From a virus (taxonomy: Duplodnaviria; Heunggongvirae; Uroviricota; Caudoviricetes), in IMG/VR virus record IMGVR_UViG_2728369185_000005: DNA of 4,710 bases, one strand, 5' to 3'. The position numbers and the translations under genes were made by a program. Position 1 is the first letter of the stretch. Each line of letters starts with the position of its first letter. The notes below the pieces were generated by a model that saw only the letters and a program-made list of their open reading frames with translations, searched no databases and was not told the DNA's origin. Positions 3-4,155 of this stretch are shown here, one piece after another.

Positions 3-740
3 AAGGCGATGTATGCAGCGACGATTGAAAGTGAACTTGATACCGAAAAGGCCTTTGAATATATCGCCGGCGCGCCACAGGAGCAGAAGGATAATCCGCT
101 TATTAATATTCTGGAGAAGTTTTCCAGCTGGTATGACACGAATAACGTGACACTGGGCGGTGTCAAAATTCCGCACCTTTTCCCTGGTGATGATCTGAAA
201 CTACAGACTGCGCAGGATTCAGACAATGGATTTTCTGCGCTTGAACAGGCGCTGCTGCGGTATATCGCCGCCGGTCTTGGCGTTTCCTACGAACAGTTGT
301 CCCGTGNNNNNNNNNNNNNNNNNNNNNNNNNNNNNNNNNNNNNNNNNNNNNNNNNNNNNNNNNNNNNNNNNNNNNNNNNNNNNNNNNNNNNNNNNNNNNN
401 NNNNNNNNNNNNNNNNNNNNNNNNNNNNNNTTTTGATTTTTATCAGGCGCGATCAGCCTGGTCACGGGCAGAGTGGATTGGTGCCGGAAGAATGGCCATT
501 GACGGGCTCAAGGAAGTCCAGGAATCAGTGATGCGCATTGAGGCCGGACTGAGCACGTATGAGAAAGAGCTGGCGCTGATGGGCGAGGATTATCAGGACA
601 TTTTCCGCCAGCAGGTCAGGGAATCTGCAGAGCGGCAAAAAGCCGGACTCTCACGTCCGGTGTGGATAGAGCAGGCGTATCAGCAGCAGATAGCGGAGAG
701 TCGTAGGCCGGAAGAGGAGACAACACCACGTGAGACGTAA
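3..740 (+). CDS. B: Portal protein, C-terminal part (5'-truncated at window edge); frame is open from position 3, first ATG at 9 is not the true start
   Basis: Long ORF open to the window start, immediately upstream of a clear lambda gpC homolog, as in lambda B-C order. C-terminal sequence (…GVSYEQLSR…WIGAGRMAIDGLKE…) resembles lambda-like portal proteins by recall. Stop TAA 738-740. Residues 307-430 are masked (N). Confidence 0.8.
   Translation, partial: KAMYAATIESELDTEKAFEYIAGAPQEQKDNPLINILEKFSSWYDTNNVTLGGVKIPHLFPGDDLKLQTAQDSDNGFSALEQALLRYIAAGLGVSYEQLSRXXXXXXXXXXXXXXXXXXXXXXXXXXXXXXXXXXXXXXXXXXFDFYQARSAWSRAEWIGAGRMAIDGLKEVQESVMRIEAGLSTYEKELALMGEDYQDIFRQQVRESAERQKAGLSRPVWIEQAYQQQIAESRRPEEETTPRET
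307..430. other. Run of 124 undetermined bases (N), masked or unresolved
   Basis: Direct observation. Reading frame of the portal ORF is preserved across the run, so the Ns appear to replace bases 1:1. Confidence 1.
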
Positions 741-2253
741 TCTTTCACACATTATTGCCGCAGCATTCAATGAACCGCTGCTTCTGGAGCCCGCCTATGC
801 GCGGGTTTTCTTTTGCGCGCTGGGGCGCGAGATGGGGGCAGCAAGTCTTTCGGTACCACAACAGCAGGTACAGTTTGATGCTCCCGGAATGCTGGCTGAA
901 ACGGACGAGTACATGGCCGGAGGTAAACGACCGGCCCGTGTTTACCGGGTGGTGAACGGTATTGCTGTACTGCCGGTGACCGGCACGCTGGTGCACCGGC
1001 TGGGTGGTATGCGGCCATTTTCCGGAATGACAGGCTATGACGGCATTGTCGCCTGTCTTCAGCAGGCAATGGCGGATAGCCAGGTGCGGGGCGTACTGCT
1101 GGACATTGACAGTCCGGGCGGGCAGGCCGCCGGCGCGTTTGACTGCGCTGACATGATTTACCGCCTCCGTCAGCAGAAGCCGGTCTGGGCACTGTGCAAT
1201 GACACGGCCTGTTCTGCAGCCATGCTGCTGGCGTCGGCCTGCTCCCGACGGCTGGTTACCCAGACATCCCGTATCGGCTCCATTGGCGTGATGATGAGCC
1301 ATGTCAGCTATGCCGGTCATCTGGCGCAGGCCGGTGTGGATATCACGCNNNNNNNNNNNNNNNNNNNNNNNNNNNNNNNNNNNNNNNNNNNNNNNNNNNN
1401 NNNNNNNNNNNNNNNNNNNNNNNNNNNNNNNNNNNNNNNNNNNNNNNNNNNNNNNNNNNNNNNNNNNNNNNNNNNNNNNNNNNNNNNNNNNNATACCGGT
1501 CTGTCTGTTGATGCCGTCACGGGAACAGAGGCTGCCGTTTTTGAAGGTCAGTCCGGCATTGAGGCCGGGCTGGCGGATGAATTAATCAATGCGTCGGATG
1601 CCATCAGTGTGATGGCCACGGCGCTGAACAGTAATGTCAGAGGAGGCACTATGCCGCAATTAACTGCAACGGAAGCCGCCGTGCAGGAGAACCAGCGAGT
1701 GATGGGGATCCTGACATGCCAGGAAGCGAAAGGACGTGAACAGCTTGCCACGATGCTGGCAGGACAACAGGGCATGAGCGTTGAACAGGCCCGGGCGATT
1801 CTGGCCGCGGCGGCACCGCAGCAGCCGGTGGCATCCACGCAGAGTGAAGCCGATCGCATTATGGTGTGTGAAGAAGCGAACGGTCGTGAACAACTGGCGG
1901 CAACGCTGGCGGCGATGCCGGAGATGACGGTGGAAAAAGCCCGCCCGATCCTGGCTGCTTCACCGCAGGCGGATGCCGGACCATCACTCCGTGATCAGAT
2001 CATGGCACTGGATGAGGCAAAAGGGGCTGAGGCGCAGGCTGAACAGCTGGCTGCCTGCCCGGGAATGACAGTGGAGAGCGCCCGGGCTGTGCTGGCTGCG
2101 GGATCAGGTAAGGCAGAACCGGTCTCTGCATCCACAACCGCCATGTTTGAACATTTCATGGCGAACCATTCACCGGCAGCGGTACAGGGTGGCGTGGCAC
2201 AGACGTCAGCAGACGGTGATGCGGACGTGAAAATGCTCATGGCCATGCCATGA
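730..2253 (+). CDS. C: Head maturation protease / minor capsid protein C (S49 SppA/ClpP-like peptidase) with C-terminal scaffold (Nu3-like) domain
   Basis: 507-aa ORF. N-terminus NLSHIIAAAFNEPLLLEPAYARVFFCAL closely matches lambda gpC NLPHIASMAFNEPLMLEPAYARVFFCAL (recall). Conserved S49 motifs: GIAVLPVTGTL, GMTGY, LDIDSPGG, GAFDCAD, KPVWAL, CSAAMLLASACSRRLVTQTSRIGSIGVMM (presumed catalytic Ser in 'CSA'). GTG start at 730 with GAGGAG (714-719) 10 nt upstream; overlaps B stop by 11 nt. Stop TGA 2251-2253. Positions 1349-1492 masked. Confidence 0.9.
   Translation: MRRNLSHIIAAAFNEPLLLEPAYARVFFCALGREMGAASLSVPQQQVQFDAPGMLAETDEYMAGGKRPARVYRVVNGIAVLPVTGTLVHRLGGMRPFSGMTGYDGIVACLQQAMADSQVRGVLLDIDSPGGQAAGAFDCADMIYRLRQQKPVWALCNDTACSAAMLLASACSRRLVTQTSRIGSIGVMMSHVSYAGHLAQAGVDITXXXXXXXXXXXXXXXXXXXXXXXXXXXXXXXXXXXXXXXXXXXXXXXXXTGLSVDAVTGTEAAVFEGQSGIEAGLADELINASDAISVMATALNSNVRGGTMPQLTATEAAVQENQRVMGILTCQEAKGREQLATMLAGQQGMSVEQARAILAAAAPQQPVASTQSEADRIMVCEEANGREQLAATLAAMPEMTVEKARPILAASPQADAGPSLRDQIMALDEAKGAEAQAEQLAACPGMTVESARAVLAAGSGKAEPVSASTTAMFEHFMANHSPAAVQGGVAQTSADGDADVKMLMAMP
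1349..1492. other. Run of 144 undetermined bases (N) inside the C protease domain
   Basis: Direct observation. Frame preserved. By analogy to lambda gpC this block likely covers the region carrying the catalytic Lys of the Ser-Lys dyad, so the active site cannot be verified from this sequence. Confidence 1.
1651..2253 (+). CDS. nu3: Capsid scaffolding protein (Nu3-like), nested in-frame in the 3' part of C via an internal start
   Basis: In-frame ATG at 1651 preceded by a strong SD AGGAGG (1641-1646). Product starts MPQLTATEAAV…ENQRVMGILTCQEAKGREQ, parallel to lambda Nu3 (MTKETQ…ENSRIMGILNCEEAHGREE, recall). Lambda nu3 is likewise nested in-frame in C. Predicted 200 aa with a triplicated repeat module. 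Confidence 0.6.
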   Translation: MPQLTATEAAVQENQRVMGILTCQEAKGREQLATMLAGQQGMSVEQARAILAAAAPQQPVASTQSEADRIMVCEEANGREQLAATLAAMPEMTVEKARPILAASPQADAGPSLRDQIMALDEAKGAEAQAEQLAACPGMTVESARAVLAAGSGKAEPVSASTTAMFEHFMANHSPAAVQGGVAQTSADGDADVKMLMAMP

Positions 2254-2289: not shown

Positions 2290-2637
2290 ATGGTGACGAA
2301 AACCATCACTGAACAGCGTGCGGAAGTACGTATTTTTGCCGGTAATGATCCGGCTCATACCGCCACAGGCAGCAGCGGGATTTCCTCGCCAACACCGGCA
2401 CTGACGCCCCTGATGCTGGATGAAGCCACCGGGAAACTGGTGGTCTGGGACGGACAGAAAGCCGGTAGTGCGGTTGGCATACTGGTACTGCCGCTTGAAG
2501 GCACAGAGACGGCGCTGACGTATTACAAGTCGGGAACCTTTGCGACGGAGGCAATCCACTGGCCTGAAAGTGTGGATGAACACAAAAAGGCCAACGCCTT
2601 TGCTGGCAGTGCCCTGAGTCACGCGGCGCTGCCGTAA
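2290..2637 (+). CDS. D: Head decoration protein (gpD-like)
   Basis: 115-aa ORF; motifs DPAHTAT, TPLMLD, KLVVWDG, AVGIL, YKSGTF, FAGSA match lambda gpD (about 110 aa, recall). SD AGGAGG 2274-2279, 10 nt before ATG 2290. Stop TAA 2635-2637. Confidence 0.92.
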   Translation: MVTKTITEQRAEVRIFAGNDPAHTATGSSGISSPTPALTPLMLDEATGKLVVWDGQKAGSAVGILVLPLEGTETALTYYKSGTFATEAIHWPESVDEHKKANAFAGSALSHAALP

Positions 2638-2694: not shown

Positions 2695-3729
2695 ATGGGA
2701 TTGTTTACGACCCGCCAGTTACTCGGTTATACCGAACAAAAAGTTAAATTTCGTGCGCTGTTTCTGGAGCTGTTTTTCCGCCGTACGGTGAATTTCCATA
2801 CCGAAGAGGTGATGCTGGACAAAATTACCGGAAAAACGCCGGTGGCGGCCTATGTCTCCCCGGTTGTTGAAGGAAAAGTGCTGCGTCATCGTGGTGGTGA
2901 AACCCGCGTGTTGCGTCCGGGCTACGTCAAGCCGAAACACGAATTTAATTACCAGCAGGCGGTTGAGCGCCTTCCTGGTGAAGNNNNNNNNNNATCTCAA
3001 CTGAATGATCCGGCTTACCGCCGTCTGCGTATCATTACCGATAACCTCAAACAGGAAGAGCACGCGATTGTCCAGGTGGAAGAAATGCAGGCGGTAAATG
3101 CTGTGTTGTATGGCAAATACACCATGGAAGGAGACCAGTTCGAGAAAATTGAGGTCGATTTTGGCAGGTCGACGAAGAATAACATCACTCAGGGTAGTGG
3201 TAAGGAGTGGTCAAAACAGGATCGTGACACGTTCGATCCTACACATGATATTGACCTCTACTGCGACCTGGCCAGCGGTCTTGTGAATATTGCCATTATG
3301 GACGGTACCGTCTGGCGTCTTCTGAATGGTTTTAAGCTGTTCCGCGAAAAACTGGATACCCGTCGCGGTTCAAATTCTCAACTCGAAACGGCAGTGAAAG
3401 ATCTGGGCGCAGTGGTGTCCTTCAAGGGGTATTACGGCGATCTGGCCATTGTGGTGGCGAAAACGTCTTATATAGCAGAAGACGGTATCGAAAAACGTTA
3501 TCTTCCAGATGGCATGCTGGTTCTGGGGAATACTGCTGCAGATGGGATCCGTTGTTACGGTGCCATTCAGGATGCTCAGGCGTTGTCCGAAGGTGTGGTG
3601 GCCTCTTCCCGTTATCCGAAACACTGGCTGACGGTAGGGGATCCCGCCCGTGAATTTACCATGACGCAGTCCGCGCCGCTGATGGTGTTGCCGGACCCGG
3701 ATGAGTTTGTGGTGGTACAGGTGAAATAA
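2695..3729 (+). CDS. E: Major capsid protein (gpE-like)
   Basis: 344-aa ORF; N-terminus MGLFTTRQLLGYTEQKVKF…LFLELFF vs lambda gpE MSMYTTAQLLAANEQKFKF…LFLRLFF (recall); many conserved blocks (PGYVKPKHE, DPAYRR, VEEMQAV, KLDTRRGSNS-LETAVKDLG, GDPAREFTM-QSAPLM, DPDEFV). SD AAAGGAA 2681-2687. Stop TAA 3727-3729. 10 N at 2984-2993. Confidence 0.95.
   Translation: MGLFTTRQLLGYTEQKVKFRALFLELFFRRTVNFHTEEVMLDKITGKTPVAAYVSPVVEGKVLRHRGGETRVLRPGYVKPKHEFNYQQAVERLPGEXXXXSQLNDPAYRRLRIITDNLKQEEHAIVQVEEMQAVNAVLYGKYTMEGDQFEKIEVDFGRSTKNNITQGSGKEWSKQDRDTFDPTHDIDLYCDLASGLVNIAIMDGTVWRLLNGFKLFREKLDTRRGSNSQLETAVKDLGAVVSFKGYYGDLAIVVAKTSYIAEDGIEKRYLPDGMLVLGNTAADGIRCYGAIQDAQALSEGVVASSRYPKHWLTVGDPAREFTMTQSAPLMVLPDPDEFVVVQVK
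2984..2993. other. Run of 10 undetermined bases (N) inside E
   Basis: Direct observation; frame preserved. Confidence 1.
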
Positions 3730-3737
3730 TCCGTGAG

Positions 3738-3766
3738 CGGGGGCGAAATGCCCCCGTGTCTTTTTT
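3738..3766 (+). terminator. Intrinsic (rho-independent) terminator-like hairpin immediately after E: stem CGGGGGC/GCCCCCG, loop GAAAT, then TGTCTTTTTTC
   Basis: Seen directly: 7-bp all-G/C stem (3738-3744 pairs with 3750-3756), 5-nt loop, T6 run at 3761-3766, 9 nt after the E stop codon. Confidence 0.7.
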
Positions 3767-3780
3767 CACAGGGGGCTGAT

Positions 3781-4155
3781 ATGGCAACGAAAGAGCAAAA
3801 TCTGAAACGGCTTGATGAACTGGCCCTGATTCTGGGGCGTGAGCCGGATATATCCGGGAGTGCCGCAGAGATAGCGCAGCGGGTGGCAGAATGGGAAGAG
3901 GAAATGCAGTCATCCGGCGATGATGTACAGGTTATGAATATGGATATCCGGGAGCGGGAAACCGCGGCTCATGATGTTCGTGAGGAAACATCCGGCGCGT
4001 TAACGCGCATCAGAGTTCTGACCTGCCTCCATCTCTGTGGCGTTGATGGTGAAACGGGGGAATCCGTTGAGCTTGCGGATGTTGGTCGGGTGATTCTGAT
4101 TATGTCCTCAGATGCAAAAACACACGTTGATGGTGGAATGGCTGTTTATGCGTGA
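3781..4155 (+). CDS. FI: Head-DNA packaging accessory protein FI-like
   Basis: Position after E; N-terminus MATKEQNLKRLDEL… resembles lambda gpFI MTKDELIARLRSL… (recall); acidic central region as in gpFI. SD GGGGG 3771-3775, 5 nt before ATG 3781. The ORF-track start at 3733 would translate through the terminator hairpin and is rejected. Stop TGA 4153-4155. Confidence 0.75.
   Translation: MATKEQNLKRLDELALILGREPDISGSAAEIAQRVAEWEEEMQSSGDDVQVMNMDIRERETAAHDVREETSGALTRIRVLTCLHLCGVDGETGESVELADVGRVILIMSSDAKTHVDGGMAVYA

Follow-up and report, generated by a model that had tools for sequence, protein, structure and literature searches.

Genes and hairpins of the capsid region

The window, by which we mean the whole stretch of DNA analysed here (4,710 nucleotides of the IMG/VR record IMGVR_UViG_2728369185_000005, one strand), comes from the head-gene region of Escherichia phage 21 or of a near-identical prophage, with about 99.7% identity to OL657228. 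Positions 3635-8362 of OL657228 are collinear with it, and the two are three substitutions apart, besides three runs of masked N in the window (307-430, 1349-1492 and 2984-2993, the last of them, of 10 N, lying inside the E gene), whose lengths differ from those of the corresponding segments of the phage 21 reference (124 versus 166 nt, 144 versus 126 nt and 10 versus 4 nt, respectively). The masking lengthens the apparent E and C ORFs, shortens the apparent portal ORF and lowers the apparent protein identity; the 6-nt length difference in E and the two seemingly divergent segments relative to phage 21 are explained by it as well. The features of the window are as follows, the genes being assigned by the annotation of M81255 and OL657228 (in the case of C/Nu3 and the head decoration gene, by the ORF list as well).

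Window start, plus strand: portal gene, 3' end
730-2253, plus strand: gene C/Nu3
2290-2637, plus strand: head decoration gene, homologue of lambda D (shp of phage 21)
2645-2666, plus strand: hairpin of the D-E spacer, TCAGGCCACC-GCGG-GGTGGCCTGA, palindromic, followed by CTGATTTCTG
2695-3729, plus strand: major capsid gene, homologue of lambda E (gene 7 of phage 21)
3727-3729, plus strand: stop codon of E, TAA
3735-3760, plus strand: E-FI hairpin, the core of which (3737-3757) is GCGGGGGC-GAAAU-GCCCCCGU
3761-3766, plus strand: T6 tract (U6 in the RNA)
3770-3775, plus strand: Shine-Dalgarno sequence of FI, AGGGGG (GGGGG at about 3771-3775), by the RBS annotations of M81255 and OL657228
3781-4155, plus strand: homologue of FI (ORF1 of phage 21), DNA packaging protein
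Window end, plus strand: FII, 5' part only

The neighbour of E on the upstream side is, accordingly, the head decoration gene, the D homologue. The gene calls of the first-pass annotation, which placed E upstream and FI downstream of a terminator-like hairpin, were right, these being gene 7 and ORF1 of phage 21 in both annotated records. As to the rest of the window, its two strongest local RNA folds (1547-1576 and 972-1001; -22.3 and -21.0 kcal/mol) are located inside gene C/Nu3, in the Nu3 (gene 6) part of which the annotation of M81255 marks three "Tri box" repeats without stating their function. The only Rfam match in the window, a weak one to the ssnA RNA at 886-928 (17.4 bits versus a gathering score of 37.3, E = 0.76), was taken as chance.

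The spacer between E and FI (3730-3780) reads TCCGTGAGCGGGGGCGAAATGCCCCCGTGTCTTTTTTCACAGGGGGCTGAT. A 7-bp all-GC stem, a 5-nt loop and a T6 tract had been described in it, and all of them are present: the stem consists of seven G-C pairs (3738-3744 with 3750-3756) closed by the loop GAAAU (3745-3749). The distances given in the same description also hold, the stem beginning at the ninth nucleotide past the E stop and ending about 14 nt before the FI Shine-Dalgarno sequence. G3737 and U3757 make up an eighth pair; in the version returned by the pattern scan the hairpin has nine pairs and an AAA loop, and in the RNAfold structure two further pairs (A3736-U3759 and G3735-C3760) form a lower stem, in which G3758 bulges out. 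The U6 tract is separated from the perfect stem by 3-4 nt and comes to stand directly at the stem base only when this bulged lower stem forms, the spacing expected of an intrinsic terminator being 0-2 nt. In its stem and loop the hairpin answers the usual definition of an intrinsic terminator (a GC-rich stem of about 5-14 bp and a loop of 3-8 nt). The 21-nt hairpin is very stable, with a predicted folding energy of -16.8 kcal/mol, and it dominates the ensemble: with 100-300 nt of context, its seven GC pairs form with a probability of 0.90-1.00.

No terminator-like pattern ranks above the E-FI hairpin, whether the window or the first 20 kb (late region) of phage 21 is considered. It is the fourth strongest 30-nt fold on the plus strand of the window, the three stronger ones being found in coding sequence. 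Compared with dinucleotide shuffles, its stability is modest (z = -1.40; 16 of 200 shuffles fold as well), because the segment consists of runs of G and C; in addition, the lax terminator pattern is frequent in the window (nine found versus 3.7 expected). Since the single-sequence statistics are modest, the case against chance rests on the comparison with relatives. The covariance-model search of Rfam 15 gave no match at the hairpin. In the 42.9-kb genome of phage 21 it is present in a single copy, with up to three mismatches allowed, which rules out a dispersed repeat of the REP/BIME type. A terminator on the minus strand was rejected as well: read on that strand, the stem is not followed by a run of T, and the scan gives no minus-strand site there. 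The annotations of M81255 and OL657228 do not include the hairpin.

The capsid gene is thus bracketed by two hairpins, that of the D-E spacer and that of the E-FI spacer. The former is a full palindrome (TCAGGCCACCGCGGTGGCCTGA), unannotated in phage 21, which can fold on either strand (-17.4 kcal/mol for the plus strand in a 30-nt window and -19.2 kcal/mol for the minus strand) and is the second-ranked terminator-like site of the window and of the 20-kb late region, the third being the annotated J/stf terminator. Hairpins in the same position are also present in lambda, mEp237, 705R4, Vibrio ST2-1pr and K279, and the counterpart in mEp237 is annotated as a rho-independent terminator. The late operon of phage 21 contains only five spacers longer than 30 nt, four of which (D-E, E-FI, I-J and J-stf) bear a hairpin; in other words, nearly every sizeable spacer of the operon has one, though a Q21-loaded polymerase should ignore hairpins. 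The annotators of OL657228 marked terminators after I and J (the I/J and J/stf terminators at 15649-15673 and 19195-19222 of OL657228, each a canonical hairpin with a U run) and none at E-FI. In the terminators marked in this record (I/J, J/stf, tR' and nin) the U run follows the perfect stem with a spacing of 0 nt. The spacer of V, the major tail gene and another highly expressed one, measures only 15 nt and has no hairpin, which means that the hairpin rule is not general for abundant late proteins.

The E-FI hairpin also bears a resemblance to a translation start. Its 5' arm together with the loop (3739-3750, GGGGGCGAAATG) mimics the true ribosome-binding site and start of FI (3771-3783, GGGGGCTGATATG), and the ATG at 3748, in the hairpin loop, shares the frame of FI. 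A longer FI beginning at this ATG, as annotated in PhiR12_2 (PV340550), was considered and rejected: the upstream open frame is not conserved across clades, and the open in-frame stretch upstream of FI measures 3-12 nt in six of the relatives (L087, L095, L117, L124, L130 and L134). Judging from these sequences, the FI start of PhiR12_2 at the hairpin-loop ATG is probably wrong.

Conservation in close and distant relatives

The close set comprised 202 loci, from IMG/VR and elsewhere, with an E end of the phage 21 type. The initial IMG/VR relatives were 97-99% identical, with an almost invariant spacer, and hence uninformative for covariation. In the 202 loci the E-FI hairpin is almost invariant, and the most variable part of the spacer is the Shine-Dalgarno sequence of FI, for which the variants GGAGGC, GGGGGA, GGGAGC and AGAGGC occur. 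The single substitutions in the stem are all C to T and lead to G-U pairs (GCCTCCG in six loci, GCTCCCG in one, the outer pair in one), and there is one deletion of a C in the stem. The T6 tract is kept in nearly all of these relatives (T7 in eight, TTTATT in one). In one variant of the phage 21 type, found in E. coli ECMA0423 and Shigella flexneri (L090/L091), a compensatory double change from G-C to A-U gives the stem CGGGAGC/GCUCCCG, which is perfect and directly abutted by T5. Prophages carry the E-FI junction in 1,542 of the 5,426 complete E. coli genomes. In E. coli JNEC-KY172 (L291) the capsid gene is a truncated pseudogene, of which the last 20 nt or so are retained together with the hairpin (loop GAUAU) and FI; this layout suggests a recombination joint just 5' of the E stop.

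For the distant set, capsid genes of the E family were taken from phage records and from genomes, with each species represented by one genome; its hosts and groups include Escherichia, Providencia, Serratia, Vibrio, Aeromonas, the Pseudomonas group and Xanthomonas. In about 29 of the 38 distinct E-family loci a GC-rich hairpin starts at most 25 nt past the capsid stop. The sequences of these hairpins are unrelated between clades, the position being what they share, and extra-stable loops (UUCG, UACG, UGCG and GAAA) are frequent among them. The hairpins past the capsid stop include the following.

Lambda (E-FI hairpin, lambda 7163-7180): AUGGCCC-UUCG-GGGCCAU
mEp237: GUGGCCC-UGUC-GGGCCAC
705R4: GAGUC-GAAA-GGCUC
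Providencia: CGGCGGG-GAAA-CCCGCCG
Serratia: GGGGC-UACG-GCCCC
Trabulsiella: 11-bp stem
Others: Vibrio ST2-1pr, Aeromonas and Pseudomonas-group prophages, chi-like Utah, Vibrio K279 and Xanthomonas AhaSv

No hairpin was found after the capsid stop of the Gram-positive phage Lagaffe. The best 30-nt fold in the first 50 nt past the stop has a mean energy of -13.6 kcal/mol, versus -8.2 kcal/mol for random windows of the same loci, and 18 of 34 loci have a post-stop fold within their own top 5% (Mann-Whitney p = 2e-11, the significance being overstated, as this value treats the loci as independent while they are related). Among the lambda-type loci a change from U-A to C-G is seen at the sixth pair, with a covariation score above those of 496 of 500 shuffles; altogether two outer pairs covary in this group (U-A to C-G; A-U, G-C or G-U), and the core is invariant. 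Taken by itself, the lambda-type group gives a weak covariation signal, five of its seven pairs being constant.

The tract following the stem is U-rich, often interrupted, in most enterobacterial relatives. At least seven loci (Trabulsiella L094, L144, L147, L150, Utah, K279 and AhaSv) possess a strong hairpin without any U tract, that is, with no more than three T in the 12 nt past the stem. The joint conservation of hairpin and U tract that belongs to an intrinsic terminator is therefore not observed, the hairpin being kept and the U tract lost in distant relatives. As for the features of a 3' stabilising hairpin, a stable sense-strand hairpin starts 6-9 nt past the stop of the more needed cistron, hairpins are enriched in this position across the 34 loci, and the compensatory changes and the independent hairpins point to selection of the structure rather than of the sequence. 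Taken on this comparative ground, the E-FI hairpin is probably more than a product of chance, and functional.

One group of loci (L096-L111, L135, L139, L141 and L146-L158) includes lambda-identical capsid fragments on short contigs of about 1x coverage, labelled as Bradyrhizobium, Paenibacillus, Kitasatospora, Chromatium, Enterococcus and others. Those of the contigs that reach past the capsid gene carry the exact E-FI spacer of lambda. The fragments are almost certainly lambda DNA contamination of the assemblies in question.

Termination, insulation, translation and chance as possible explanations

The anatomy of the E-FI element brings to mind a partial intrinsic terminator, at which some of the late polymerases would stop at U6, so that FI and the genes beyond it would get fewer transcripts than E. 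If the bulged lower stem is counted, this anatomy is canonical, with ten base pairs, a 5-nt loop and U6 next to the stem; the site is the top terminator-like match in 20 kb, its U run is kept in about 200 of the 202 close relatives, and in one variant T5 follows a perfect stem without a gap. In phiX174 (PMC3335065) and T7, expression is known to be graded by leaky internal terminators, and the authors of the phage L study suggest the same for the terminator past the P22-type procapsid module (PMC8022706). However, structures show Q21 as a nozzle at the RNA exit channel, where hairpin formation is reported to be blocked, and the topological link between Q21 and the RNA keeps it active for tens of thousands of steps (bioRxiv 10.1101/651190). 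Such a nozzle, said to bar hairpins almost absolutely and to be processive across the operon (bioRxiv 10.1101/651190), makes attenuation by the E-FI hairpin unlikely. Moreover, many relatives keep the hairpin without the U tract, and in them termination cannot occur at all, while the comparable D-E hairpin upstream would cut the transcripts of E itself. The 5' arm lies 6-9 nt past the stop of a heavily translated gene, where a terminating ribosome would be expected to cover it, and the site escaped the terminator calls in OL657228. An attenuator role, which the first-pass annotation had offered along with stabilisation of the mRNA, is thus disfavoured, and we regard it as unlikely. Termination confined to polymerase free of Q, which would stop spurious or read-in transcription of the head genes in the prophage or in early infection and be ignored once Q21 is loaded, seems to us quite unlikely as well. 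A hairpin with U6 should indeed act on ordinary polymerase, the junction, being carried by prophages (in 1,542 of the 5,426 complete genomes of E. coli), is for most of the time in the repressed state, and the same proposal has been made for phage L (PMC8022706). Such an insulator, however, leaves unexplained both the placing of hairpins specifically on the two sides of the capsid gene and the hairpins that lack a U tract and are unable to terminate; nor is there a notable promoter-like site just upstream (three matches in the window versus 2.5 expected).

A translational role, in which the hairpin would separate the translation of E and FI or tune the initiation of FI, could be played by two routes: re-initiation by ribosomes leaving E would be blocked, or the 3' arm (GCCCCC) would pair with the FI Shine-Dalgarno sequence (GGGGGC). 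The 3' arm at 3750-3755 is perfectly complementary to 3771-3776 (6 bp), a ribosome at the E stop would be expected to release this arm, and in L090 the arm GCUCC is again complementary to the Shine-Dalgarno region GGAGC. The ratios of lambda late gene products are set largely at translation initiation, which was also counted in favour of this role. The mimicry of the FI start by the 5' arm and loop likewise prompted it. In spite of that, we consider it very unlikely, as the probability of the alternative pairing is at most 0.045, the complementarity is broken in at least 31 close relatives with the Shine-Dalgarno sequence GGAGGC, and in others, the lambda-type hairpins do without it, and the upstream open in-frame sequence of FI is not conserved. 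A switch sequestering the Shine-Dalgarno sequence was rejected on the same grounds, the competing helix having this low probability and being lost in many close variants. As to the absence of any function, i.e. a chance GC-rich inverted repeat in the spacer, it would agree with the z of only -1.4 against shuffles and with the equally strong folds inside gene C. It is hardly credible in view of the conservation of the position across distant clades with unrelated sequences, the enrichment of strong folds (p = 2e-11, overstated by the relatedness of the loci), the compensatory changes and the enrichment of tetraloops.

Candidate role in message stability

We propose, with roughly even confidence and on the basis of sequence comparison, that the E-FI element is an intercistronic stem-loop of the terminator type whose main role in the lytic cycle would be post-transcriptional, namely that of a 3' mRNA stabiliser; protection of the capsid message from decay is more likely than the stopping of transcription. 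The supposed course of events is as follows. The late genes of lambda are transcribed as a single 27-kb Q-dependent mRNA (PMC10695390). In phage 21, the RNA polymerase loaded with Q21 would read through the E-FI hairpin, as the published mechanism of Q21 implies, and the hairpin would fold behind the polymerase, for which its thermodynamics speak. An endonuclease would then cut the long late mRNA further downstream, plausibly in the U-rich linker or in FI, 3'-to-5' exonucleases would trim the product back and stall at the hairpin, and, as a consequence, translatable D-E and E messages would outlive the FI/FII/Z part. These last three steps would follow the example of known stabilisers, among them the galE hairpin and the phiX174 TJ terminator: once Rho has terminated transcription or RNase E has cut the RNA, the galE hairpin stalls 3' exonucleases and stabilises the upstream message (PMC11925234), and disruption of the TJ structure of phiX174 leads to faster decay (PMC3335065). 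The D-E hairpin would protect the D cistron likewise, and the U tract would confer a secondary ability to stop ordinary, Q-free polymerase.

A 3' stabiliser would fit every comparative observation made here. What the loci compared have in common is a very stable hairpin directly past the capsid cistron, and past D, and it is the abundantly needed cistrons that have a hairpin after them. On the other hand, the near-perfect keeping of the U run in close relatives and the U-rich tails of the enterobacterial ones would also suit a terminator. Besides, the rates of lambda late gene expression were reportedly attributed by Sampson et al. in 1988 mainly to translation initiation, which would leave a smaller share to mRNA stability. 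As for FI, virions do not contain it, yet it is known from lambda to be made in fairly large amounts, and the premise of the first-pass annotation that FI is needed far less than E is only partly safe.

A wider proposal, which we make tentatively and hold to be somewhat unlikely, is that the two independently evolving and often tetraloop-capped hairpins, D-E and E-FI, deliberately bracket the capsid cistron in E-family phages as a nuclease-resistant cassette. Such a cassette would be carved from the antiterminated late transcript of more than 20 kb, its upstream hairpin guarding the new 5' end as well as the 3' end of D and its downstream hairpin guarding the 3' end of E. The result would be a general, Q-compatible post-transcriptional boost of the output of D and E. 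In addition, a fragment consisting of the hairpin and its U tail might be released and act as a 3'-derived small RNA.

Several known systems can be set beside the E-FI element. Like the intrinsic terminators inside late operons (that of the procapsid module of phage L, and I/J and J/stf of phage 21), it is a co-oriented GC-rich stem-loop with a U run in an antiterminated operon. In I/J and J/stf, however, the U run sits on the perfect stem, which is achieved at E-FI only via the bulged lower stem, and the E-FI homologues of many relatives, unlike intra-operon terminators, have no U tract. In the case of phage L, both partial termination and a stop of non-antiterminated transcription were listed as possibilities (PMC8022706). 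With galE and the phiX174 TJ structure the element shares the position of a stable hairpin just past the more strongly expressed upstream cistron; exonuclease stalling after downstream cleavage or termination is proposed to result in polarity of expression (PMC11925234, PMC3335065). For galE and phiX174, 3' ends and half-lives have been measured; the E-FI hairpin is described here by its sequence and predicted fold. Other 3' stabilising hairpins are the REP sequences of malEFG and the puf hairpins of Rhodobacter; REP is a dispersed repeat, in contrast to the single-copy E-FI hairpin.

The positional counterpart in lambda is the hairpin of its own E-FI spacer, which lies 3 nt past the E stop, with about 20 nt left to the FI Shine-Dalgarno sequence. 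It, too, combines a GC stem with an extra-stable loop and a U-rich tail (UGUUUCUCUG). In sequence the two hairpins are not similar, the lambda hairpin having a tetraloop and an interrupted U tract and that of phage 21 a pentaloop; the annotations of J02459 and OR974322 do not include the lambda hairpin. In T7, the terminator T-phi, a hairpin with a U run directly past the capsid gene 10, lowers downstream expression relative to that of the capsid gene. It resembles the E-FI element in having a hairpin and a U run past the major capsid gene, but the polymerase is different: T-phi acts on the T7 RNA polymerase, which is not antiterminated, and termination at it has been measured and is substantial. 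Terminator-like hairpins past capsid or procapsid genes inside operons have, then, been noted before. The E-FI hairpin of phage 21 was previously unannotated, and the genome announcement of the phage makes no mention of it; that its position is conserved so broadly, and independently of the U tract, is a useful addition rather than a surprising one.

In general, lambda-type late operons are expressed from one long antiterminated transcript, and the proteins encoded there are made in ratios that differ by orders of magnitude. Over a quarter of the complete E. coli genomes carry the E-FI element in a prophage, and in annotation practice the G run of the hairpin and the ATG of its loop, which resemble a ribosome-binding site and a start, mislead gene callers as to the beginning of FI. 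If the hairpins flanking the capsid gene do act via RNA decay and not via termination, a post-transcriptional layer would be added to the picture of the late operon, and it would become clear why "terminators" persist in operons whose polymerase ignores terminators.
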